Translations under genes and position numbers: made by a program
In this document: piece after piece, positions 4,287 through 27,718 of the stretch
Position numbering within the stretch: position 1 is the stretch's first letter
Layout: each line of letters starts with the position of its first letter
The notes under the pieces: generated by a model
Database searches by the model: none
Told to the model about the DNA's origin: nothing
What the model saw: the letters and a program-made list of their open reading frames with translations, nothing else
DNA from: Gemmata obscuriglobus
GTDB lineage: Bacteria > Planctomycetota > Planctomycetia > Gemmatales > Gemmataceae
Direction: 5' to 3'
Assembly: GCF_008065095.1 (NCBI RefSeq)
Contig: NZ_CP042911.1
Coordinates: 3,330,001-3,362,000, forward strand
DNA length: 32,000 bases

Positions 4287-4494
4287 AAGCGGCCGGCTCC
4301 GAGACCTAAACATCCTGCGGCGTTCCGCCGCGGGTGCGGCTGCTTGCGATTGCGTTCCCGGGAGTGTTGTTCGTTTCGCCGGTCGAATTCGTGGCGCTTC
4401 CGGCCTGAATCGACCTGCGTCTCCGGAAGGCCACGAATTCGACCGGCGTGGTGAACGCTCTCGGTCCACGATTGAAGTCGGAGCCGGCCGCCTT
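4287..4494 (+). ncRNA. Retron msr-msd ncRNA, copy B (immediately upstream of the RT)
   Basis: a1 4289-4302 pairs with a2 4478-4491 as 14 perfect bp, plus 2 more after a bulge. It has the GC hairpin gcggcg-ttc-cgccgc and a 26-bp hairpin 4377-4403/4423-4448 with one bulge and loop cctgaatcgacctgcgtct. It ends 20 nt before the RT start codon, the canonical msr-msd-ret order. Confidence 0.75.
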
Positions 4495-4514
4495 GTTACC
4501 CGCGAGCATCGCTC

Positions 4515-6125
4515 ATGAGCCTCTTCGACTGGGTGTTCCGCCGGAAGCGCGACGCGGACACCCCTCCGGCGCCACCCCCAGCCGCGCCGACTGCTCCCGC
4601 TTCTTCGGACAAAGCACCGTCGGGTAACACCACCTCGGGGACTCCGGGGGCGAATGCTCCTCGCTCGTCCGAGGGGAGCGAAGACCAGTACGCCGCGAAC
4701 GACTTCCTGCCCATTTCGCGTCAGGAGATCGTCGACGCTGCCAAGAAGCACGGGCGCCTGCTCGCCACCGCGTTCCAGTTCGGGCGCCAGAGCATCATCC
4801 CGCCCGTCAGCGACCCGCGGACCGAGATCATCGACCGCGCGCTCGTTACGCACGGACTGCTCACGCCCGAAGAACTGAACGAGATCCACCGCGTCGGCGA
4901 GGAGTACGAGAAGGTCCGCCCGACCGAGCAGGGCATTGCGGCTGCAGCCGGACTGGCCGGCACCGCCGCCGTGCAAGCGTACCGGGCGGCCAAGGAGGCG
5001 GAGAAGGAGCGCAAGAAAAGAGAAGCGGAGCTGCGCAAGAAGGTGCGCGCCGAAGCCGTCTGGCGGCGCCGCACCACCGATATCATTTTTTTGGGGCGTG
5101 GTGTGTCGGGGCGGCTCCACCTGCGCTTGAGCGACGAGGGGCGCCTCACGGAACTCGGGTTGCCGGTGATGCACACGCCCGCTGATGTCGCGAACGCCCT
5201 CGGCCTCACCGTTCCGCGGCTCCGCTGGCTGGCGTTCCACACCGATGTGGCCACCCGCACGCACTACGTGAAGTTCTCGGTCCCGAAGAAGTCCGGCGGG
5301 ACGCGCCAGCTCGCCGCGCCGCACAAGAGTTTGAAGGCCGCGCAGCACTGGATTCTGGCGAACGTCGTGAACAAGCTGCCGGTGACCGAGGCCGCGCACG
5401 GGTTCGTTGCCGATCGCGGGATCGTGACCAACGCAAACCCGCACGTTTGCAAGGCGTTCGTGGTGAACTTGGACCTGTCGGACTTCTTCCCCTCGATCGC
5501 GTTCCCGCGGGTGCGGAGCGCGTTCGAGCGGTACGGCTACTCGGGTTGTGTTGCCACCATTCTTGCGCTGCTCTGCACCGAGTGCCCGCGCGCCGCGGTA
5601 ACCTATGCCGGAACCAAGTACGAGGCCGCGACCGGCCCGCGCGGGCTACCGCAGGGCGCGCCCACCAGCCCCGGGCTGTCGAACCAAGTCGCGCGCAAGC
5701 TCGACAAGCGGCTGCTCGGGGTCGCGACGAAGCTCGGCCTCACCTACACCCGCTACGCCGACGACCTCACCTTCTCCGGTGATGCGGACGCCGCTGCCAA
5801 GATCGGCTGGCTGCTTACGAAGGTGCGCCACATCGCCAGCGAGGAAGGGTTCGCCGTCAACGAGAAGAAGACCCGTGTGATGCGCCGCAGCGCGGCCCAG
5901 ATGGTCACGGGTGTGGTGGTGAACGACAAGCCGTCCGTGTGCCGCGACGAGCTGCGCCGGTTGAGGGCGATTCTGCACCGCGCGAAGTCCGAAGGGCTGG
6001 ACGCTCAGAACCGCGAAAAGCTGCCGAACTTCCGCGAGTGGCTGCGCGGGAAGATCGCGTTCGTGAGTATGGTCCGCCCGGACGCCGGCGCGAAGCTCAA
6101 GGCTCAACTCGACGCCGTGTCGTAA
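4515..6125 (+). CDS. Retron-type reverse transcriptase with a roughly 200-aa N-terminal extension (536 aa)
   Basis: RT motifs VVNLDLSDFFPSI, RGLPQGAPTSPGLSN and YTRYADDLTFSG (YADD). Retron-typical NAxxH (TNANPHV) and VTG (QMVTGVVVND) motifs are present. The N-terminus is a Pro/Ala/Ser-rich low-complexity stretch followed by a Lys/Glu coiled segment (AKEAEKERKKREAELRKK). Confidence 0.9.
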   Translation: MSLFDWVFRRKRDADTPPAPPPAAPTAPASSDKAPSGNTTSGTPGANAPRSSEGSEDQYAANDFLPISRQEIVDAAKKHGRLLATAFQFGRQSIIPPVSDPRTEIIDRALVTHGLLTPEELNEIHRVGEEYEKVRPTEQGIAAAAGLAGTAAVQAYRAAKEAEKERKKREAELRKKVRAEAVWRRRTTDIIFLGRGVSGRLHLRLSDEGRLTELGLPVMHTPADVANALGLTVPRLRWLAFHTDVATRTHYVKFSVPKKSGGTRQLAAPHKSLKAAQHWILANVVNKLPVTEAAHGFVADRGIVTNANPHVCKAFVVNLDLSDFFPSIAFPRVRSAFERYGYSGCVATILALLCTECPRAAVTYAGTKYEAATGPRGLPQGAPTSPGLSNQVARKLDKRLLGVATKLGLTYTRYADDLTFSGDADAAAKIGWLLTKVRHIASEEGFAVNEKKTRVMRRSAAQMVTGVVVNDKPSVCRDELRRLRAILHRAKSEGLDAQNREKLPNFREWLRGKIAFVSMVRPDAGAKLKAQLDAVS

Positions 6126-17541: not shown

Positions 17542-17930
17542 TCACCGGGTTCCGTCCTTAAGTGGGGCCGCTTCATCGACGACCAGTGCCGCTTCGGCGG
17601 TGACGTACGCGGCGCCGGTGGCGCCGGGCACCACGGCGCCCGGCTCGACCGTACCCTCGAACACGCTCCCGGTGATGCTCTCTTTGCGCCACACCTCGCC
17701 CGGTTGGAGCGCACCGTCGACGTAAAGGCACGCGAGCTCCGCGCTGGTCCCGGTGCCGCACGGCGAGCGGGCGTAGGCCGTTCCGGGGCACAGCACGAAG
17801 TTCCGCGCGTGGTTCGCGGGATCGACCGGCGGCCCGAGCAGTCGGGACCGCCCGCGACCACGACCCGCGTCGGCTCCCCGTCGGTGTGCGAAGCGACGAC
17901 CTGAATGCGCTGGATGAGATTCTCGTCTGA
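17542..17930 (-). pseudogene. Proline racemase / 4-hydroxyproline 2-epimerase family pseudogene (internal deletion plus frameshift)
   Basis: The N-terminal signature IQVVASHTDGEPTRVVVAGGP is in one frame. The C-terminal part DPANHARNFVLCPGTAYARSPCGTGTSAELA...ESITGSVFEGTVEPGAVVPG...VVDEAAPLKDG is in another. The whole is about 390 nt, against roughly 1 kb expected for the family. Confidence 0.7.
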
Positions 17931-17940
17931 AGCCCACGTA

Positions 17941-18423
17941 CTACATGTCCGCGAAACAATTGCGCGACGGCGCGCCGATCGTCGCGAGATGCGCGGTGGC
18001 GACGACTTGCCACGCCTGTTCGACCTCACACCGGCTCTGATAGTCGCGAGGGAAGAGGGCTCTCAAGACATTCGGTACTGTGTGCCGAAGCACCCCAGCG
18101 TATCGAACATTTATGGGGTTGATAACAACGCCGAGAATAAACGTTGCCGCGTTCGCTATCTCGTAAAGTTCCAATCGTCCGCCACGGTTGGGGGCATTTC
18201 TTTTCCCCAACCGCTCGCATTCTCTGTGCAACGCGGTGCGTGCGTCCCCATCAACGGGCGCCCCTTCAACCCAGTCCCAAGCCATTACAAGAACACGATC
18301 AAAACACGACGCAGCCGCCTCGGAAAGAGTCGGGCGGCACAGTGCTACCGCCCGATTGAGGCATTCCGTCATGAACGCGAGTTCACGCTGGGCGAAAGGT
18401 TCACCCGGGGGCACTGACGGCAT
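17941..18423 (-). CDS. Hypothetical protein (160 aa) with atypically low GC3
   Basis: ATG lies 5 nt after the stop of the upstream DapA-like gene. The central part (about 18030-18330) is visibly more AT-rich than the neighbours. No motif recognised. Only the last 160 codons of the 527-aa ORF were used. Confidence 0.5.
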   Translation of the reverse strand: MPSVPPGEPFAQRELAFMTECLNRAVALCRPTLSEAAASCFDRVLVMAWDWVEGAPVDGDARTALHRECERLGKRNAPNRGGRLELYEIANAATFILGVVINPINVRYAGVLRHTVPNVLRALFPRDYQSRCEVEQAWQVVATAHLATIGAPSRNCFADM

Positions 18424-18428
18424 TGGCT

Positions 18429-19325
18429 TCACCGTGTTGGGCGAGTGGCGATCGCGGTGCGGATCAGTTTCAGCACGTGCTCGCGCTCCGGGCCGACCAG
18501 TGGCAGGCGCGGGGAGCGGCACAGTTCCGTACCGTACCCGCACTCGGCCGCCGCGAGCTTGATGTACTGCACCAGCTTCACGTGCGTGTCGAGGTGCAGG
18601 AGCGGCGTGTACCAGCGGTACACGTCCAGTGCTTCCTTCCACTTGCCGGCCTGGGCCAGGTCCCACAGCAGCCGGTTCTCGGCGGGGAAGGCGTTCACCA
18701 GCCCGCTCACCCACCCGACCGCGCCGAGAATCATGCACTCCACCACGAGGTCGTCGACCCCGGCGAAGATCACGTAGCGGTCCTTGGTGAGGTTGATGAT
18801 GTCGGTGATGCGCCGCGGGTTGTCGCTCGACTCCTTGATGCACGCGAACTTCGGCTCGTCGGCCATCTCGACGAACATCGCGGGCGTGATGTCCACCTTG
18901 TAGGCCGGCGGGTTGTTGTAAACCATGATCGGCAGGTCGCTGGCGCCCGCGACCGTCCGGAAGTGCGCGACCGTCTCGCGGTCGTCGCTCTTGTACACCA
19001 TCGGCGGCAGCACCATCAGCCCGTCGGCGCCGAGCTTGGCCGCTTCGCTCGCCCACCGGCACGCGCCCGCGGTGGTGTACTCCGCCACGCCCGTCAGCAC
19101 CGGCACCCGCTTCCCGACGTGCTCGACGGCCGCTTTCAGCAGCTCTTTTTTCTCGGCCAGTTCGAGCGTGGTGTTCTCGCCCACGCTGCCCATCATCACA
19201 ACGCCGTGAACGCCCGCATCGAGCATCGCGTCGAGGTGCTTGAGCGTGCCGGGGATGTTCAGCGATTGATCGGGATGGAACTGCGTACACAGGGCCGGGA
19301 AAACGCCTTGCCAGTTCACTTTCAT
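18429..19325 (-). CDS. Dihydrodipicolinate synthase (DapA/NAL) family class I aldolase-like protein
   Basis: MMGSVGENTTL (GxxGE), MVYNNPPAY (YNxP) and the Schiff-base lysine context FACIKESS. ATG at 19325 gives 298 aa, typical of the family. Confidence 0.85.
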   Translation of the reverse strand: MKVNWQGVFPALCTQFHPDQSLNIPGTLKHLDAMLDAGVHGVVMMGSVGENTTLELAEKKELLKAAVEHVGKRVPVLTGVAEYTTAGACRWASEAAKLGADGLMVLPPMVYKSDDRETVAHFRTVAGASDLPIMVYNNPPAYKVDITPAMFVEMADEPKFACIKESSDNPRRITDIINLTKDRYVIFAGVDDLVVECMILGAVGWVSGLVNAFPAENRLLWDLAQAGKWKEALDVYRWYTPLLHLDTHVKLVQYIKLAAAECGYGTELCRSPRLPLVGPEREHVLKLIRTAIATRPTR

Positions 19326-19423
19326 CGCGGGCCTCGAGGACAGGGTGGAAGGAGCGAAACGGACAGACAAAGAGCGGGACAGCGGCCGGGGGCGCGCGTC
19401 GCGCCCCGGGAGGCGGTCCGCCT

Positions 19424-21556
19424 TCATTTTTGCAGGGGTGCGTACACGACCCGGAAGCCGACGTAGTCGAGCCGGTCGGTGGGGCGCTTGCCGTCGCGCG
19501 CCGCGGAGCGGACGCCGGACGCACGGTCGCGGAACGAGCCGCCGCGGATCACGCGCATGTCGCCGTCGGCCGGTCCGGTCGGGTCGGCCCCTTCCTTGTA
19601 GGCGTCGATGCGGAACCAGTCGCTGCACCACTCTGCAACGTTCCCGTGCATGTCGTACAGCCCGAAGTCGTTCGGCTTGGTCTTACCGACCTCCGTTCCG
19701 AACCGCAGCGGCTTGCCGGGCACGTCGCCCGCGCGTTCGAGTGGGTCTTCGCCGGTGGCGAGAAACACCGCTTGCGTCGGGAACGCGATCGCGTCGCCGC
19801 ACGAGAACGGCGTGGTCGTGTTGGCGCGGCACGCGTACTCCCACTCGGCCTCCGTCGGCAGGCGGTACGCCCACCCGTTGCGCGCCCACGCCTGCCCGCG
19901 GTCCTTCTCCAGCAGCTTGCGGCAGAACTCGTTCGCCTCGTCCCAGGTGACCGAATCGACCGGCAGCGACGTGCCCCGGGCCGCCAGCGCCGCGCCCCGT
20001 GACGGCGCCCCGCCCATCATTCGGACGTACTGCCCGTGCGTCACCTCGGTGGAACTCATGAAGAACGGCCCGCGGACCGTCACCTCGCGCACCGGTCCCT
20101 CGCGCCCGTCGTCGGCGCGCCCCGGCTCCTCCTCCGGCGAGCCCATCTTGAAGGTGCCCCCCTCCAGCCGGACCATCTTCAGACCGGCGGTGTTGGTGAA
20201 CGGTTTCGGCACCGTCGGGCCAGTGTTGATAAAGGCCAGAAACACCGCCACCCCGAGCGCTGCGAATACGAACAGGCCGCCGAGCACTGCGAGCACCGTG
20301 CCGGTGGGAAACGCGCCACGGGGGCGCCGCCGGACCGAGACGCCGTGTTCGTGCGGCGCCAGCTTGAACACCTGGCTGCCCGGCCCCGCGATCGAGGGTT
20401 GCGTTACCGGCGCGGGCGCCGGTAACGGACTCGGGGCCGCACCCGGGTGAGCCTCGGGCGGTACCATCGGGACCCGCTGTCCGGACGCGGGCGCCAGGAG
20501 CGCCTCGCTTCCGGGGGCCTCGGTCGGGCAGAACGGCTGCAGCGCGGCCGCCAGTTGGAGTGGCGTCTGGGGGCGGTGATCCGGTTCCTTCGCCATGCAC
20601 CAGTGGACGATCTGTTCGAGCAGCGGGGGCGCGTCGGCCCGCCGCGACAGGAGGTCCGGCGGCGGGTCGGTGCAGTGTTTGAGGAGCTTTTCGGTCGGGG
20701 TCGCGCCCTCATACGGGACCAGGCCCGTGAGTGCAAAATAGAGCGTGCCGCCGAGCGCGTAGATGTCGGCCCGGATGTCCACGGCCGTCGGGTTCCGCGC
20801 CTGCTCCGGGGCCACGAAGTCGGGCGTCCCGATCACGAACCCCTCCTGGGTGATCCGGAGCGCGTCCGCGCCGCCGGGCGGCTCCATCAGCCGGGCGAGC
20901 CCCAGGTCCACGAGCTTCACGGCCCCGCCGTGCCGCGGGGCGATGATGTTGGACGGCTTGATGTCGCGGTGCACCAGCCCGCGCTCGTGCGCGTGCTGCA
21001 GCCCCAGTGCCGCCTGCCGGATCACGTCGCACGCCTGGAAAACCGGCAGCGGGCCGACCTCGCGAACGATTTTCGTGAGGTCGGTGCCGTCGATCAGCTC
21101 CATGACGTAGAAGTGGTACCCGTCGACCTCCTCCGCGTCGTACACCTTGACCACGTTCGGGTGGTCCATCGCCGACAGCGCGAGCACCTCCTGCTCGAAC
21201 CGCACGACCGCAACGGAGTGGGTGAGCCGCTCCCGGCGAATGACCTTCAGCGCGACATCCCGACCCATGCGGGTGTCGTGGGCCTTATATACGCGGCCCA
21301 TGCCCCCCTCGCCGAGCACCGTGAGCAGCACGTACCGGCTGGCCACCTTGAGCGCGGCCCCGCGGCCCCGCGCGACCTCGCGGATCTGGTACGGGGTGAG
21401 CCACCCGCGGCGGCTCACCTCCCGCGCCGCGGCGGGCAGGTCGGGCCGCGCGTGCGCGATCCAGCCCCACAGGTCGCGCAACTGCGCGTCGGTCAACAGC
21501 CGACTGGCCTGCAAGTTCTGGTAGAACATGGCCGTCGCGTCGGCGGCGCTGCTCAT
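19424..21556 (-). CDS. Transmembrane Ser/Thr protein kinase with a C-terminal FGE-sulfatase (SUMF1-like) domain
   Basis: Kinase motifs GEGGMGRVYKA, VALKVIR, HRDIKPSNI, DLGLA and VAPEQ. TM helix GTVLAVLGGLFVFAALGVAVFLAFI. FGE-like motifs YRLPTEAEWEYACR, GLYDMHGNVAEWCSDW and RVIRGGSF. Confidence 0.9.
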   Translation of the reverse strand: MSSAADATAMFYQNLQASRLLTDAQLRDLWGWIAHARPDLPAAAREVSRRGWLTPYQIREVARGRGAALKVASRYVLLTVLGEGGMGRVYKAHDTRMGRDVALKVIRRERLTHSVAVVRFEQEVLALSAMDHPNVVKVYDAEEVDGYHFYVMELIDGTDLTKIVREVGPLPVFQACDVIRQAALGLQHAHERGLVHRDIKPSNIIAPRHGGAVKLVDLGLARLMEPPGGADALRITQEGFVIGTPDFVAPEQARNPTAVDIRADIYALGGTLYFALTGLVPYEGATPTEKLLKHCTDPPPDLLSRRADAPPLLEQIVHWCMAKEPDHRPQTPLQLAAALQPFCPTEAPGSEALLAPASGQRVPMVPPEAHPGAAPSPLPAPAPVTQPSIAGPGSQVFKLAPHEHGVSVRRRPRGAFPTGTVLAVLGGLFVFAALGVAVFLAFINTGPTVPKPFTNTAGLKMVRLEGGTFKMGSPEEEPGRADDGREGPVREVTVRGPFFMSSTEVTHGQYVRMMGGAPSRGAALAARGTSLPVDSVTWDEANEFCRKLLEKDRGQAWARNGWAYRLPTEAEWEYACRANTTTPFSCGDAIAFPTQAVFLATGEDPLERAGDVPGKPLRFGTEVGKTKPNDFGLYDMHGNVAEWCSDWFRIDAYKEGADPTGPADGDMRVIRGGSFRDRASGVRSAARDGKRPTDRLDYVGFRVVYAPLQK

Positions 21557-21670
21557 CGATCGGTCACCGGTGGTGCGAGTGGCGGCCCTTGCCTTTGTAC
21601 CAAGGCGGGCCGGAGGCGTAAGCCCCGCGCCCGCCTATATGCTAACGAGTAACGAGAACGGAGCACCACC

Positions 21671-22717
21671 ATGCCGAGCATCACCGTCAACGAGCAGCCG
21701 CACACCTTCCCCGACCCCTTCACCGTAGCCGACCTGATCCGCCACCTGGGCAAGGACGCGAAAACGCTCGCGGTGGAGGTGAACCGCGCCGTGGTGCCCC
21801 GGGCCGACCACCCGGCCCGCCGGCTCACCGACGGGGACGCGGTCGAGGTGGTGACGCTCGTGGGCGGCGGCGCCGCCGCCACCCACGAGGCGCCCGCCGA
21901 CAAGCCGCTGAAGGTCGGGAAGTTCACCTTCCGCAGCCGGCTGTTCACGGGCACCGGCAAGTACCCGTCTTACGAGCTGATGCAGCAGTGCATGGATGCC
22001 AGCGGGTGCGAGGTGACCACCGTGGCCGTGCGCCGCGAGCGGCTGATCGATAAAGACGGCAAGAACATCCTCGACCACCTCGATTTGAAGCGGCTCACGA
22101 TCCTCCCCAACACCGCCGGGTGCTTCAGCGCCGAGGACGCGGTCCGGCACGCCCGGCTCGCGCGCGAGCTGCTCTCGGGTCTGGAGAACCCGGGGGCGGA
22201 CTGGGTCAAACTCGAGTGCCTGGCAGACAAGCGGACGCTCCTGCCCGACCCGATCGACACCCTGAAGGCGACGGAACAGCTCGTGAAGGACGGGTTCACG
22301 GTGCTGGTCTACACGAGCGACGATCCCGTTCTCGCCAAACGGATCAAAGAGGCCGGCGCGGCCAGCGTGATGCCGGCGGGCAGCCCGATCGGCAGCGGGC
22401 AGGGCATTTTAAACCCGAACAACATCCGCATTTGCCTGGAATACTTGAAGGAGAACGACCCCGATTACCCGGTGATCGTCGATGCCGGGGTGGGCACCGC
22501 GAGCGACGTTTCTGCGGCGATGGAGCTGGGCTGCGACGGGGTGCTCCTCAACACCGCCGTCGCGAGTGCCAAGGACCCGCTGCGGATGGCGTGGGCGATG
22601 CGGTACGCGACCGACGCCGGGCGGCTCGCGTACCTCGCGGGACGCATCCCGAAGCGCCTCTACGCCAACGCCAGCAGCCCGACCGAGGGCATCATCGCAT
22701 CGAGCGGCGGCAAGTAA
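21671..22717 (+). CDS. thiG: ThiS-ThiG fusion (sulfur carrier fused to thiazole synthase)
   Basis: The N-terminal ~67 aa end in [10 protein letters not shown] (ThiS-like C-terminal GG). A short linker follows, then the ThiG core [18 protein letters not shown] ... ILPNTAGC ... VKLE ... [13 protein letters not shown] ... [10 protein letters not shown]. Confidence 0.9.
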
Positions 22718-23069: not shown

Positions 23070-23558
23070 ATGATTCACGAAGTGTCCGGTGACATCACGC
23101 TCACAAAAGCTCAGGCGATCGCACACGGGGTTGCTCCCGACGATCACTTCGACCACGACCTCGCGCTGGCCCTGCGGGAAAAATGGCCGGTGATGGTGAA
23201 GGACTTCCGGCACTACTGCCGGCAGTGTCACCCGCAGCCCGGCGAACTGTGGGAGTGGGGCGGCGTGGGTGGCGTGCGTGTGTTCAACCTGCTCACCCAG
23301 ACCGAGCACGGGCACGGCGGGCACCCGGGGCCGGCGACCGAGGCGACTGTGAACCACTGCCTGCGCCGGTTGCGCCACGAGTTGGAGAAGCACGCGGTCA
23401 AGAGCCTCGCCATTCCGAAGATCGGAACCGGCGTGGGCGGGCTCACGTGGGAGCATGTGAAGCCCCTCGTGGAGCAACACCTTGGGGATCTGAAAATCCC
23501 GATTTTCGTCTACACGACCTACCACAAGGGGCAGCAGGCAGAAGAAACCGGCGCGTGA
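23070..23558 (+). CDS. Macro domain protein (ADP-ribose binding/hydrolase-like), 162 aa
   Basis: ATG preceded by ggag. The motifs VSGDITLTKAQAIAHGV and SLAIPKIGTGVGGL resemble macro-domain signatures. Confidence 0.7.
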   Translation: MIHEVSGDITLTKAQAIAHGVAPDDHFDHDLALALREKWPVMVKDFRHYCRQCHPQPGELWEWGGVGGVRVFNLLTQTEHGHGGHPGPATEATVNHCLRRLRHELEKHAVKSLAIPKIGTGVGGLTWEHVKPLVEQHLGDLKIPIFVYTTYHKGQQAEETGA

Positions 23559-23591
23559 CGCACGCGAGACGACCGGCGACGGATGTGGCAC

Positions 23592-24533
23592 TCAGCCCGA
23601 GTGTGAGGTGCTTCCCGTTGCGGAGGTGTCTCGCCCATCCGGTCCGAGGAACATGCCGCAGGATGCGGCCACGTCGAACCCCACGCGCGCGATGACCACG
23701 ACGCGGGCGCCGGGTAGCCGCTCGCGGTAGATGGCCGCGTTCCGCTCGACGACCGCTTCGGGCGGTTCCGTGCCATGTCGCGCGGGGTCGAACGGGTTGT
23801 ATCGCACCACGTTGATGTGAGCCATCAGCTTGCGCTCCTCAAGGGCGTCGCAGATGGCGTGAACGTCCCCCTCCGTGTCGTTCTCGCCGGCGATGTACGC
23901 GTGGTGCAGCACCACCAACTTCAGGCTGTGCCGCTGCCACGCCGCCAGCCGGTCGAGGGCGACCTCGGCGGGGTGCGCTTTGGGCAACCACCGGCGGCGG
24001 AACCGCTCACTCACGCTGTAAATCGAGTAGTGGATTTCGGGCTGGTGAACCACGAACACGTCTTCCAGTGCCCGGTCGCCAAACGCTTTCGGGTAGATGG
24101 TTGAGATCAGGTGCCGGGGGCGCAGGCCCGATCCGACGGCGAGCCGGGACAGTTCGCCGAGCAGTTCGTCGCCCCGCGTCGCGATCACCTTGCTGGCGAG
24201 CGGTTCCCCACGGGCCATGAGGTTGAAGTGAACGGCACGCGCCGGCTTTCCTTCGCGGCGGTAGTGGGCCAGCACCGTTTCGGCCTGTTCGAGGAACTCG
24301 TTGAAGGTCGTGTCGCGAAGGTGCGTCTGCCCGGTGGCGGTCAGGTGGCACATGCGGCACGCTTGCGCGCACCCGGTTTGCGACGACAGGTAGGCGACGA
24401 AGTAGTCCTCGCAGCGGCGGACGTACCGCGCTTCCAACCGGCCGACCTCCGCGGGCCGGTCCCAGTTCACGGACGCGTCCAGTGCGCTCTTGTGCGCGGT
24501 GAACCCGGCCCCGGGCAACAGCGGCAGTTGCAT
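23592..24533 (-). CDS. Radical SAM enzyme, RlmN/Cfr-like core without the N-terminal domain (313 aa)
   Basis: CxxxCxxC in SSQTGCAQACRMC, followed by LMARGEPL (compare MGMGEPL), ISTIY, IAGENDTEGD, INVVRYNP and C-terminal GFDVAASCGMF (compare DIDAACGQL). This is the same motif order as RlmN. Confidence 0.75.
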   Translation of the reverse strand: MQLPLLPGAGFTAHKSALDASVNWDRPAEVGRLEARYVRRCEDYFVAYLSSQTGCAQACRMCHLTATGQTHLRDTTFNEFLEQAETVLAHYRREGKPARAVHFNLMARGEPLASKVIATRGDELLGELSRLAVGSGLRPRHLISTIYPKAFGDRALEDVFVVHQPEIHYSIYSVSERFRRRWLPKAHPAEVALDRLAAWQRHSLKLVVLHHAYIAGENDTEGDVHAICDALEERKLMAHINVVRYNPFDPARHGTEPPEAVVERNAAIYRERLPGARVVVIARVGFDVAASCGMFLGPDGRDTSATGSTSHSG

Positions 24534-24660
24534 CCCGACCTCCGCGACGGCGTCGGGGCCATTCTCGCACCGGCCCGATCAATTGCAAGCGCGGGAGCGG
24601 TGGGGGCCGAACCCGTTACGGTGGTGGTGGCCGGTCCGGCCGCCGGTTACACTCAGCCGC

Positions 24661-25467
24661 ATGAGCACAAGAACCGCCGCGCCCGATCCCGACGACGCCC
24701 GCCACCGGGTGCTCGAAGCGGTCCTGCTGCGCCTGGCCCGGCGGCCCGACGCGGGCGCGTTCGTGCTGCGCGGCGGTATGCTGATGCGGCACTGGTTCCG
24801 CCCGGTCCCGCGCCCGGCCGCCGATCTGGACCTCGTGGCGACGATTCCCTTCGCGGTTGAAGCGGCGGCGGGCCGCATCCTCCCGGCCCTTTCGAACGAC
24901 ATCGGTGACGGGGTGGGGTTCGACCTTGAGGAGACGCGCGCCGAAGGGATGTTTCTGGACACCGGCAGTCCCGGCGTGCGCGTGCGGTCGGTCGGCGTGT
25001 GTGACGGGGGCGAGGTCGATTTTCACATTGATGTCACCTTCGGCCCCTTCCCACGGCCCGCGCCGGTGCTGGGCGACATTCCGGCCGCGTCCGGTGCCGT
25101 CGCGCGGGTGTGGCACTGCCGGCCCGAGGCGGTCGTCGGGCAGAAGGTGCAGGCGCTGCGGCACCTGGGCATGCGGGGCTGGCGGCAAAAGGACCTCAAC
25201 GACCTCCGCCTCCTCCTCGCCCGCGGCGGCATGGACGAGGGGGACCTGCGCGACGCGGTTGCGGCATACCTCGGGGACCTCGGCGCGACCGGGGCCGACG
25301 CGCGGGCGCTGTTCGGCCCCTCGTCGTGGTGGGGCATGAAACTGTCCGCCGCCCGCTGGCTGGATTTCGTGCGAGAGGAGCGGGGGCAGCGCGTGCCGAA
25401 AGACCTCGCGGGCGTCGTCGCCGGGGTCGCGGCCCGCCTGACCCCGGTACTGGAGGGCTTGACATGA
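24661..25467 (+). CDS. AbiEii/AbiGii-like nucleotidyltransferase (DUF1814-type toxin family)
   Basis: NTase motif FVLRGGMLMRHWFRPVPRPAADLDLV (GG-x(n)-DLD) and downstream E..VGQKVQAL......KDLNDLRLL. ATG at 24661. Confidence 0.7.
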   Translation: MSTRTAAPDPDDARHRVLEAVLLRLARRPDAGAFVLRGGMLMRHWFRPVPRPAADLDLVATIPFAVEAAAGRILPALSNDIGDGVGFDLEETRAEGMFLDTGSPGVRVRSVGVCDGGEVDFHIDVTFGPFPRPAPVLGDIPAASGAVARVWHCRPEAVVGQKVQALRHLGMRGWRQKDLNDLRLLLARGGMDEGDLRDAVAAYLGDLGATGADARALFGPSSWWGMKLSAARWLDFVREERGQRVPKDLAGVVAGVAARLTPVLEGLT

Positions 25468-26981
25468 GCGGTGCGCTGGCCGGCGACTTTCGCGACTACA
25501 TTGTCGCGCACATCGACGAGGACACGCCGCGCCTCGCCTACGCCGACTGGCTCCAGGAGCAAGGGCGGGACGAGCGGGCCGAGTTCATCCGGGTGCAGGT
25601 CGAGCGGGCGCAACTTCCCACCTGGCACCCGGCGCAGGTGCGCCTGGCCCTGCGCGAGCGCACGCTGATCGAGCGGTACGGCGAGGAGTGGCTCGCGGAG
25701 CTGCCGGTCATTGAGGGCGCGCGGTGGGAGGGGTTCCGCCGGGGCATCGTCGCCGAGGTGTCGTTCGCCAGCTTCGAGGCGATGCGGAAGAACGCCCACG
25801 CGTGTCGGGCCGCGGCCCCGGTCGAGGCGGTCACCGTCCGCTGGCCGCGCCGCCGCGAGGGCGGCCGGACCGTGAATCCGATCGCCGAGCTGCGCGAACT
25901 CACCCTCACCGGGAACCCCGATTACGACGCGTTCGAGTGGGTGGCCGGGTCCCCGCAACTGGCCACCCTTCGCGGGCTGACGGCCCGCAGCCTGTGGGGC
26001 GCTTCGCTCGGGGTGCTGGCCGGCTCGCCCCACCTGGCGAACCTGAAATCGCTTTGCCTGCCGTCGAACAATCTCGGCAACGAGGGGATCTTCGGTCTGG
26101 CGAAAGCGGTCACCTTGTCCGCTCTCGAGGAGCTGGACTTTTCCTCGCAGAGCCGGCACGAGCGGTACATTCACGACCCGGTCATCCGGGCGGCCGGGAT
26201 GGGGGCGCTCATCGGCTGGTCCGGCCTGGCTACCGTGCGGGCGCTGACCCTGAACGGGAACGACGTGAGCCGGGACGGCCTGAGGGCCTTGCTGCGCTCG
26301 CCGCACGTCGCGGGGTTGAAGCACCTGTCTTTACGCGACGGGCAACTGGACGGTCAGGCGATGGCGGAGTTCGATTCCGCGCGTCCGGACCTTCGACTGG
26401 AAACGCTGGACCTCGGCCAGAACGTGCTTCAAAACGTCGGCGCGGAGTACGTCGCGCTGGCCCCGTGTTTGTGCGAACTGAAGGCCCTTCGGCTCGACCG
26501 GTGCGAGGTTCGGCTCACCGGCGCCCGCGTGCTCGCGAAGAAGGCCGCGTTCCTCGACGGGCTGCGGCTGCTGGACATCGGTCACAACCACTTTGGCCCG
26601 GCCGGGCTCGGCGCGCTCTTGGAGCGCCCGCCGGCGGCGCTCCACACCCTCCGGGTGCGCGACAACGACCTCACGGCCGAGGGGGCCGAGCTGCTGGCCG
26701 CGGCACCGGCGTCGGACACCCTGCTGGAACTAGACCTGTGTCGGAACCGGCTGGGCGCACGTGCGGTGCGGGCGCTGGGGGAGGCCGAGCACTTGCGGGG
26801 TTTGTTGGTGTTACGCCTCGCCGACAATCCGATCCGGGCGCGGGACGCCGAGGCGCTGGCCGCGTCCCCACTCGGCCGGCGTTTGGCCGTACTGGAATTG
26901 GAAGCTCCGGAGCCGGACGGGCCGGGCGCCGACCAACTGGAGCCGGACGAGCCGGATACGGACGAGCCGATTCCGTTCTGA
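25464..26981 (+). CDS. TIGR02996-type repeat-companion domain plus RNI-like leucine-rich repeat protein (505 aa)
   Basis: N-terminus DTPRLAYADWLQEQGRDERAEFIRVQ. It is followed by about 28-aa repeats of type L..L.L..N.LG..G...LA.SP.L..L. The tail is acidic (EPDEPDTDEPIPF). The ATG overlaps the upstream stop (ATGA at 25464-25467). Confidence 0.85.
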   Translation: MSGALAGDFRDYIVAHIDEDTPRLAYADWLQEQGRDERAEFIRVQVERAQLPTWHPAQVRLALRERTLIERYGEEWLAELPVIEGARWEGFRRGIVAEVSFASFEAMRKNAHACRAAAPVEAVTVRWPRRREGGRTVNPIAELRELTLTGNPDYDAFEWVAGSPQLATLRGLTARSLWGASLGVLAGSPHLANLKSLCLPSNNLGNEGIFGLAKAVTLSALEELDFSSQSRHERYIHDPVIRAAGMGALIGWSGLATVRALTLNGNDVSRDGLRALLRSPHVAGLKHLSLRDGQLDGQAMAEFDSARPDLRLETLDLGQNVLQNVGAEYVALAPCLCELKALRLDRCEVRLTGARVLAKKAAFLDGLRLLDIGHNHFGPAGLGALLERPPAALHTLRVRDNDLTAEGAELLAAAPASDTLLELDLCRNRLGARAVRALGEAEHLRGLLVLRLADNPIRARDAEALAASPLGRRLAVLELEAPEPDGPGADQLEPDEPDTDEPIPF

Positions 26982-27718
26982 TGGCCGCTCTGGCGCGCAC
27001 TGTGAGTGTCCGGGTGCGAATGCACACCCGACATCCGGCCGCCGCGGCAAAATCCCCTACTGACATCTGCCGGGTATATCCGCTGTGCCGGCATTCTCCG
27101 CGCGAGGCGGGCCGTTAACACGTACCGCCCGCACCGCACCTGTCGCGGTCCCAGCGCTTCGGGTGCCCGTGAGGCGCGTTGTGCGACGGAAAACCGGCGC
27201 CGCACTGGTGAACCCGGCTCACCGACGACCCGGGCGAGCCGGTTCCGCCAGTTGCTGGCCTCGCGGCGATCGAGGTCCATCCGGGCGCACACCGCGTTCT
27301 CAGCTCGCGAGACGGTGTGACGGGAGCCGCCGCCGCATGGGCTACACCCACGGGGCGCCGACTGGACATCCGCTGGCGTTCGACTGGTCTACGGAGTGGC
27401 GATTCACTGGGTGGTCGCTACCACCGAATCGCGCGTCTCAACCCCCAGACGTAGCTCCCGGCGCCGGGACCGGTGAGATGATGGTTTTTGGATGTAAAGT
27501 GTTTTAGGGATGTAACTTGTGGAAATTTTTTGCGTCGAGAGGCTGCGCTGCTCGCATGGGGACCGGACGCTTGCGGCCCGAAATTGGTGGAGGTACGGCT
27601 CGGCGCGAACTTCCGGAACGACCCCGAGGGAGAAATGAGGTGGGATAAGACCCGATGTGCCGACCGCACGGCTCACAGAGGGCCAGCGAACGAGACGGGA
27701 TTTGTTACCGTTCCGGCC

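Follow-up and report, generated by a model that had tools for sequence, protein, structure and literature searches.

Gene organization of the locus

This report concerns three adjacent genes found in a 32,000-nucleotide stretch of the genome of Gemmata obscuriglobus (contig NZ_CP042911.1, positions 3,330,001 to 3,362,000; this whole stretch is referred to as the window hereafter). They encode a radical S-adenosylmethionine (SAM) enzyme, a nucleotidyltransferase (NTase) of the AbiEii/AbiGii type (DUF1814), and a protein composed of a TIGR02996 domain and leucine-rich repeats (LRRs). The radical SAM enzyme is abbreviated to rSAM, and the three genes are collectively referred to as the trio. Together with an adjacent macro-domain gene, they had been proposed in a first-pass annotation to form a four-gene conflict cluster. 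The genome is a single 9.0-Mb contig, the G+C content of the window is approximately 67%, and the genes were picked using the G+C content at the codon positions and family matches. The features of the locus are as follows (positions are those of the window).

23070-23558, plus strand: macro-domain gene, 162 amino acids (aa); Pfam Macro, 30 bits
23592-24533, minus strand: rSAM gene, 313 aa; best NCBIfam match RlmN
24534-24660, no strand: divergent spacer between the rSAM and NTase genes, 127 bp
24661-25467, plus strand: AbiEii/AbiGii-type (DUF1814) NTase gene, 268 aa; Pfam AbiEii, PADLOC AbiEii
25464-25467, plus strand: ATGA, shared by the end of the NTase gene and the beginning of the LRR gene
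25464-26981, plus strand: TIGR02996 and LRR gene, 505 aa; TIGR02996 and LRR_6
26982-27718, no strand: right edge of the insertion, without genes, 737 bp, ending at the stop of the FAD-oxidase gene

All four genes, with the strands and families first assigned to them, were confirmed by the NCBIfam, Pfam, and PADLOC matches, and the layout was also as described in the first-pass annotation: the macro and rSAM genes are convergent, with 33 bp between their stops, and the rSAM gene is divergent from the NTase-LRR pair, with the 127-bp spacer lying between the rSAM and NTase genes. The true start of the NTase was found to be 24661, and the start of the longest open reading frame (ORF), 24490, was set aside; likewise, 25464 is the true start of the LRR protein, the earlier start at 25110 being set aside. 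The spacer (24534-24660) presumably holds the predicted promoters of both the rSAM and the NTase; a search of these 127 bp for a sigma-70 consensus gave none, and the spacer is conserved only in part among close relatives. The ATGA overlap couples the NTase and LRR genes translationally, and a 4-nt overlap or a close abutment of the two genes is seen in most of the Planctomycetota loci. The neighbors of the cluster in the window are genes for ThiS-ThiG, a Ser/Thr kinase-FGE fusion, and FAD-oxidase/CCG proteins.

Conservation and distribution of the trio

The occurrence of the trio was examined in 60 related genomes, with an E-value of 1e-20 or less for the rSAM and an identity of about 60% or more for NTase orthologues. 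The rSAM and NTase genes were confined to the same five relatives (G006, G011, G025, G032, and, as fragments, G019), and the presence and absence of the two were identical among the 61 genomes. The four relatives whose locus was read share the same divergent layout, with the rSAM gene on one side and the NTase-LRR pair on the other, and the flanks are wholly different in each of them; the identities there are 72-79% for the rSAM, 60-65% for the NTase, and 53-69% for the LRR protein. The same arrangement was found in two long contigs from metagenomes or metagenome-assembled genomes.

When an alignment of the rSAM family was run against one genome per species, 73 loci were obtained. The NTase gene adjoins the rSAM gene in 36 of them, and the LRR gene is also present in 33. 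These 36 NTase-bearing loci belong to Gemmataceae, Pirellulaceae, and several families of Myxococcota, and their flanks are unrelated. Across the rSAM-seeded loci, the identity falls to 32% for the NTase and to 30% for the LRR protein but does not go below 56% for the rSAM; in a Myxococcales locus (L075), for instance, the values are 38%, 33%, and 65%, respectively. The NTase and the LRR protein evolve much faster than the rSAM. In a maximum-likelihood tree of 43 rows, the trio-linked rSAMs form one clade with support of 100/99, in which Planctomycetota are nested beside a Myxococcota grade. The NTase gene is frameshifted in G032 and at L062.

The rSAM-NTase-LRR segment (23592-26981) is thus a conserved and self-contained accessory module, which is patchy in distribution, decaying, and horizontally moving. 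Because the three genes are co-localized across two phyla, even where the NTase and LRR proteins have diverged to ~30-40% identity, and always have different flanks, they can be regarded as a functional module, the population behavior of which is accessory or conflict-like. The proposal of a four-gene conflict cluster is therefore upheld in part: in the gene-neighborhood analysis, the rSAM, NTase, and LRR genes co-localized far above chance across the two phyla, and the macro gene was found to be unlinked to them in relatives, as detailed below.

A fourth gene occurs on the 3′ side of the LRR gene in 20 of the rSAM-seeded genome loci. Its product is a P-loop protein (about 290 aa) that weakly matches Sulfotransfer_3, and the gene is found in many Planctomycetota loci and in nearly all Myxococcota loci (e.g., L060:1246-2250, L075:3760-4641, and L129:7264-8094). 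No tblastn match to this sulfotransferase-like gene was obtained in the present window. The window also contains a reverse-transcriptase gene (4476-6125 and upstream), which follows three proteins without a family match. Elsewhere, a reverse-transcriptase gene lies near the trio at just one locus, L074, and the two are therefore not systematically linked.

The macro gene and the insertion of the trio

Orthologues of the macro gene, with identities of 69-99%, were found in 12 of the 60 related genomes, and the trio is absent from 10 of these 12. The macro and FAD-oxidase genes of G017 and G018 are convergent and separated by 30 bp; the corresponding gap in the present window is 4,160 bp and is occupied by the trio. 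G025 carries the macro gene as well as the trio, at a distance of 2.2 Mb from each other. Furthermore, no macro gene was found near the approximately 110 loci that carry the trio or the pair elsewhere. The trio (~4.2 kb) is thus an insertion between the macro and FAD-oxidase genes, the left edge of which is marked by the macro gene, and the macro gene itself is a stable syntenic chromosomal neighbor that lies outside the module. Its membership in the module, which had been considered, was ruled out by the synteny in relatives. This case illustrates that neighborhood in a single genome can mislead: the genes are adjacent yet unrelated. No convincing terminal repeats or mobile-element ends were found around the insertion.

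The fate of the trio can be followed in the closest relative, G004, which is 93-95% identical in nucleotide sequence to this locus and carries a macro protein that is 99% identical. Its gap between the macro and FAD-oxidase genes is only ~1 kb (L047:12854-13859) and holds a remnant, in which codons 220-258 of the rSAM gene, including an in-frame stop, are joined to the part of the LRR gene corresponding to aa 428-505, also with stops. This remnant indicates that the trio was present in the common ancestor of the present genome (G000) and G004 and was lost in the latter; since it was deleted there, the trio is dispensable.

As for the macro protein itself, it is a stand-alone domain of the TARG1/DarG type: the PADLOC DarG match (4.4e-21) covers the macro half only, and the NCBIfam DarG model gives 66 bits against a cut-off of 250, over model positions 2-154 of 338. 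Its relatives in the PDB are the macro domain of DarG and TARG1. No candidate ORF for DarT was found in the 350 bp upstream of the macro gene. In the stretch LLTQTEHGH, Gln or Thr apparently stands where TARG1 (K84) and DarG (K80) have their catalytic Lys; the macro domain may bind ADP-ribose without hydrolyzing it, or may use another mechanism.

Two further observations concern the surroundings. One is an inversion, relative to G004 and G017, of the region at about 17800-22450 of the window, which carries the DapA-like, kinase-FGE, and ThiS-ThiG genes. Another is the presence of two fusion proteins: ThiS is fused to ThiG (21671-22717), and a Ser/Thr kinase is joined to an FGE-sulfatase domain (19424-21556).

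The nucleotidyltransferase and its partners

The NTase matches Pfam PF08843 (AbiEii) with 62 bits against a cut-off of 22.5 and the PADLOC model PDLC02319 at 2.8e-41. It is the sole AbiEii-like gene product in the genome. The catalytic motifs of the NTase are intact: RGG37-39, D55xD57, D124, K162, and R175xKDLxD181 do not vary among 27 orthologues. The structural model (predicted local distance difference test score, pLDDT, 93) has the DUF1814 protein JHP933 as its nearest solved fold, and the NTase profile aligns with AbiGII (9hlo_B) at 7.7e-23, positions 17-259 against 29-272. No relatives of the NTase were matched in IMG/VR.

An NTase-seeded scan of metagenomes with the NTase profile yielded 74 loci, which were divided into a close clade (45% identity or more) and a distant clade (28-39%). 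In the close clade, the LRR gene lies 3′ of the NTase gene in all 24 loci with readable downstream sequence, and the rSAM gene lies upstream in 21 of the 24 loci with readable upstream sequence. In the distant clade, the rSAM gene is replaced at 18 loci by an upstream gene that runs in the same direction as the NTase gene and encodes about 210 aa, referred to as upX hereafter. The order of upX and the NTase gene is the classical antitoxin-toxin order, and upX overlaps the NTase start in the L159 example (L159:4288-4971). Among the upX loci, the LRR gene is present in 8 and absent in 9. The motifs FExHxT and YxExHxK are invariant in upX and recall the pair of HxT motifs found in 2H phosphoesterases; a search against the PDB sequences gave no match, and this likeness comes from the motifs alone. 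At some loci, the LRR genes number two or three. The picture that emerges is that of an NTase-centered module with exchangeable partners, in which the NTase and the LRR protein form the tightest pair.

Variation in the LRR genes was also observed at individual loci: three tandem LRR paralogues follow the NTase gene on the P0292 contig, and a gene for a 655-aa LRR protein (L127:3039-5006) lies between the rSAM and NTase genes at another locus.

The LRR protein

The LRR protein begins with the TIGR02996 domain (residues 8-49; 70.1 bits against a cut-off of 29.05), to which LRR_6 repeats are added; its overall architecture is the TIGR02996 domain and an LRR horseshoe, with a conserved stretch of about 100 aa between them. 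In the structural model (pLDDT 90), a helical TIGR02996 domain and a small alpha/beta region precede about 12 repeats of the ribonuclease inhibitor (RI) type, and the best structural matches are ribonuclease inhibitor and the LRRs of NLRP proteins (TM-scores of 0.57-0.67). The protein is thus predicted by the model to be a ribonuclease-inhibitor-type horseshoe.

The radical SAM enzyme

The best matches of the rSAM are RlmN and Cfr, both well under the cut-offs; for the NCBIfam RlmN model, the score is 46.4 bits against 290, and the alignment starts at about position 92 of 355. The rSAM had first been taken for a truncated enzyme. This turned out to be wrong: the enzyme has the full length of its family, phrog_27142 (6e-106, 355.7 bits), whose members have about 300 aa, and its residues 11-296 align to profile positions 6-299 of 300. 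The part of RlmN that is absent from the rSAM is the N-terminal domain of about 90 aa. A canonical RlmN is encoded elsewhere in the genome (5051080-5052123, 366 bits).

The residues of the rSAM were read from alignments to solved RlmN and Cfr structures and to 32 family representatives. The CX3CX2C cluster (C55, C59, and C62) and C292, which corresponds to the methyl-carrying Cys (C355 of E. coli RlmN), are invariant in the 33 family members. At the position of the resolving Cys (C118 of RlmN and C105 of Cfr), the rSAM has Tyr48, which is nearly invariant in the family, and the family has no further conserved Cys. Owing to this loss of the resolving Cys, either another general base, with Tyr48 as the candidate, or a stalled covalent intermediate may be expected; work on the C118 mutant of RlmN reportedly predicts a stalled covalent intermediate when the resolving Cys is missing.

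The rSAM family comprises 309 clusters (50% identity, E ≤ 1e-30). Matches were obtained with tblastn in 27 phage records, and the carriers include 201phi2-1 (gp434), Phabio, Psa21, CcrColossus (gp283), and Brevundimonas phages; the rSAM is 40-54% identical to the jumbo-phage proteins. Further members were found on 113 IMG/VR contigs, a large share of them 200-465 kb in length, in Pseudomonas megaplasmids of about 1 Mb, in Saccharibacteria, and in other bacteria. No conserved partner was found for the rSAM in phages, where the copies lack NTase, LRR, and sulfotransferase-like neighbors; in one phage lineage, a RecA/UvsX gene adjoins the rSAM gene, which is uninformative.

The surroundings of individual rSAM homologues may also be recorded here. 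In actinomycetes (L116:6190-9514 of Wenjunlia and L096 of Nocardia), the gene order is P-loop kinase, rSAM, MazG, and GrpB/CoaE. In a Saccharibacteria locus (L108), an IMPDH gene adjoins the rSAM homologue, and in phage CcrColossus (L124), a tRNA nucleotidyltransferase gene lies 1.7 kb from it.

Proposed function and alternative explanations

Characterized DUF1814 members add nucleotides to the 3′ ends of tRNAs and thereby arrest translation (PMC7450476, PMC10435456). By analogy with them, the trio may be an undescribed NTase-centered conflict module that acts on RNA in the manner of toxin-antitoxin (TA) or abortive-infection systems; we estimate the probability of this reading at roughly 0.5, and a role of the trio in defense is what we infer. 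The NTase would be the effector, transferring nucleotides to tRNA 3′ ends and arresting translation as the AbiEii/MenT toxins do (PMC7450476, PMC10435456, PMC3985639). The LRR protein would be its partner, which holds the NTase inactive and/or releases it on sensing a trigger, and would take the place of the missing AbiEi, AbiGi, or MenA antitoxin. The rSAM, through adenine-carbon methylation of the RlmN/Cfr type, might act on the same RNA or nucleotide as the NTase, either shielding the molecules of the cell itself or inflicting a further lesion; our confidence in this assignment is low. A phage-host arms race would fit, because the rSAM family is otherwise found mostly in jumbo phages. A more specific form of the proposal, which we consider quite unlikely, is that the rSAM lacking the resolving Cys would pair with the NTase toxin as its enzymatic counterpart on an RNA common to both (e.g., a tRNA): it would place a protective adenine C-methyl mark, serving as an antidote in the cell and, after capture, as anti-defense in jumbo phages, or would act once only, cross-linking itself to the RNA in a single turnover.

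Several observations weigh against the conflict reading. The toxicity of the NTase is assumed from distant relatives, and MenT3 was absent from both the sequence and the fold matches of the NTase. The 49 genes that flank or interrupt the module include no family seen more than twice; a clear defense character is limited to one or two of the flanks (reverse transcriptase and HEAT-ARM proteins), and no enrichment of defense islands was found in the flanks. The genome carries about 67 TIGR02996 domains, several of them in tandem arrays (e.g., G000:C1:1416387-1424764); this set is a very large lineage-specific expansion, and the LRR protein is thus one orthologous line within a large paralogous expansion. 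Intact NTase-LRR pairs without an rSAM gene within 4-5 kb exist (L136, L141, and L145), as do rSAM-only loci (L055, L058, L069, and L093), from which it follows that the rSAM is not strictly required in cis. Finally, the sulfotransferase-like fourth gene is frequent and points to chemistry on nucleotides or small molecules, as do the genes of nucleotide metabolism beside which distant rSAM homologues lie: a P-loop kinase, MazG, GrpB/CoaE, and IMPDH or a DHH phosphoesterase. Both would fit an explanation outside conflict, in which the NTase, the rSAM, and, where present, the sulfotransferase-like enzyme would sequentially modify a nucleotide, an RNA, or a protein-linked nucleotide for some niche physiology, with the LRR protein as a scaffold or substrate. 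Three of the four proteins of the extended module are indeed nucleotide-handling enzymes, the strong conservation of the rSAM is what would be expected of a metabolic enzyme, and most flanks are made up of ordinary metabolic genes. Such a pathway is nevertheless somewhat unlikely, given that the NTase family is known only as toxins (PMC3985639, PMC7450476), that the module is patchy, decays fast, and relocates, that LRR genes are duplicated at some loci and NTase partners are swapped between the clades, and that the rSAM family is concentrated in huge phages; besides, no transporter, regulator, or extra biosynthetic gene is conserved nearby.

The loci in which the pair and the rSAM occur separately bear on another explanation, namely that the NTase and the LRR protein alone form a two-gene TA-like unit, alongside which an rSAM of originally phage origin merely travels. 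The solitary occurrence of the rSAM in phages, megaplasmids, and bacteria of the candidate phyla radiation (CPR), and its position on its own divergent promoter side, would agree with this. We regard it as unlikely, since the divergent rSAM/NTase layout is kept across two phyla while the NTase and LRR identities drop to 30-40% and the flanks all change, and since the two genes show identical presence and absence in the 61 genomes and the trio-linked rSAMs form one clade; hitch-hiking alone should not last so long. The opposite extreme, with the rSAM as an obligatory antidote of the NTase, initially fitted the rSAM-seeded data, a biased sample in which rSAM-only loci and broken NTases beside an intact rSAM were seen and the reverse never was; it was downgraded to a low probability by the three intact NTase-LRR loci without an rSAM gene within 4-5 kb. 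Highly improbable is a single conflict system of all four genes, in which the macro domain might, for example, reverse ADP-ribosylation: it can draw on the adjacency seen here, on the 33 bp between the macro and rSAM stops, and on the likeness of the macro domain to the DarG antitoxin, but the macro gene and the trio are unlinked in the relatives (10 of 12 without the trio, direct abutment of the FAD-oxidase gene in G017 and G018, and 2.2 Mb of separation in G025), and DarT is missing.

To our knowledge, the only partners known for the DUF1814 (AbiEii/MenT) toxins are small antitoxins of the AbiEi or MenA type. At this locus, the putative NTase effector is tied to an LRR protein of the ribonuclease-inhibitor type and to a radical SAM relative of the adenine methylases, and the same holds for hundreds of environmental sequences of Planctomycetota and Myxococcota. 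If the trio is a conflict system, NTase toxins would gain an LRR-regulated, NLR-like logic, and a radical SAM family that is unannotated and common in jumbo phages and megaplasmids would gain a testable function; it would also provide a natural RlmN variant without the resolving cysteine, of mechanistic interest for radical SAM enzymology. Should the idea of a shared RNA target be true as well, the trio would represent a novel RNA-directed immune module with three components, and phrog_27142 would receive its first function.

Comparison with known systems

No complete named system was found among the four proteins with PADLOC and NCBIfam, in agreement with the first-pass annotation, which had recognized none: PADLOC gives AbiEii without AbiEi, and the macro half of DarG without DarT. 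Our literature searches turned up no earlier account of the three genes in combination, of TIGR02996, or of the rSAM family of phages, nor any function ascribed to that family. The comparison with DarTG concerns the macro gene only: its domain aligns with those of DarG and TARG1, but the C-terminal half of DarG and a DarT gene are lacking.

The rSAM resembles RlmN and Cfr, the adenine C2/C8 methyltransferases, in the CX3CX2C and GEP motifs and in the methyl-carrying Cys within the SCG motif, and the whole catalytic core is aligned. It differs from them in lacking the N-terminal RNA-binding domain of about 90 aa, in having Tyr for the resolving Cys, and in scoring below the cut-off. With phrog_27142 ("Fe-S-cluster redox domain-containing"), the match is full-length, but the phage copies stand alone.

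As for the NTase, AbiE (PMC3985639) is similar in having a DUF1814 NTase with conserved motifs, as reflected in the Pfam and PADLOC AbiEii matches, and in being a small, mobile, and dispensable locus. In AbiE, however, the antitoxin AbiEi, a winged helix-turn-helix protein, is encoded upstream, whereas here the 127-bp spacer is followed by the divergent rSAM gene; the AbiEi models of PADLOC and Pfam gave no match to the four proteins, and the co-translated partner here is the downstream TIGR02996-LRR protein. AbiG (9hlo) provides the best solved-structure sequence match to the NTase profile, near full length, and motif I has Gly-Gly in both; the identity is low, and no AbiGi-like partner was seen here, where the only neighbors of the NTase are the rSAM and the LRR protein, neither of which was compared directly with AbiGi. 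MenAT of M. tuberculosis (PMC7450476, PMC10435456, PMC11375011) belongs to the same DUF1814 superfamily; its MenT1 and MenT3 are tRNA-acceptor-stem NTases, and MenT supplies the mechanistic model of tRNA 3′-end extension, with a DxD motif and a catalytic Lys. A Ser/Thr residue of MenT is auto-phosphorylated under the control of the antitoxin, S78 in the case of MenT3 (PMC11375011). Where MenT1 and MenT3 have this phospho-acceptor Ser/Thr, the present NTase appears to have the invariant Gly39, as placed by motif position only; Gly39 is consistent with a different mode of control, though AbiGII also has Gly-Gly there. A gene for a MenA-type antitoxin, which accompanies MenT, is absent here.

The LRR protein, finally, can be compared with ribonuclease inhibitor and with the LRR sensors of NLR proteins, including the logic of Avs-like systems. 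The predicted horseshoe, the RI-type repeats of about 28 residues, and the protein-binding architecture are alike; in contrast to the NLR-type sensors, it has no STAND NTPase, carries TIGR02996 at its N-terminus, and is a separate polypeptide coupled to the NTase. We classify the trio as a DUF1814 NTase toxin-type module with new partners.

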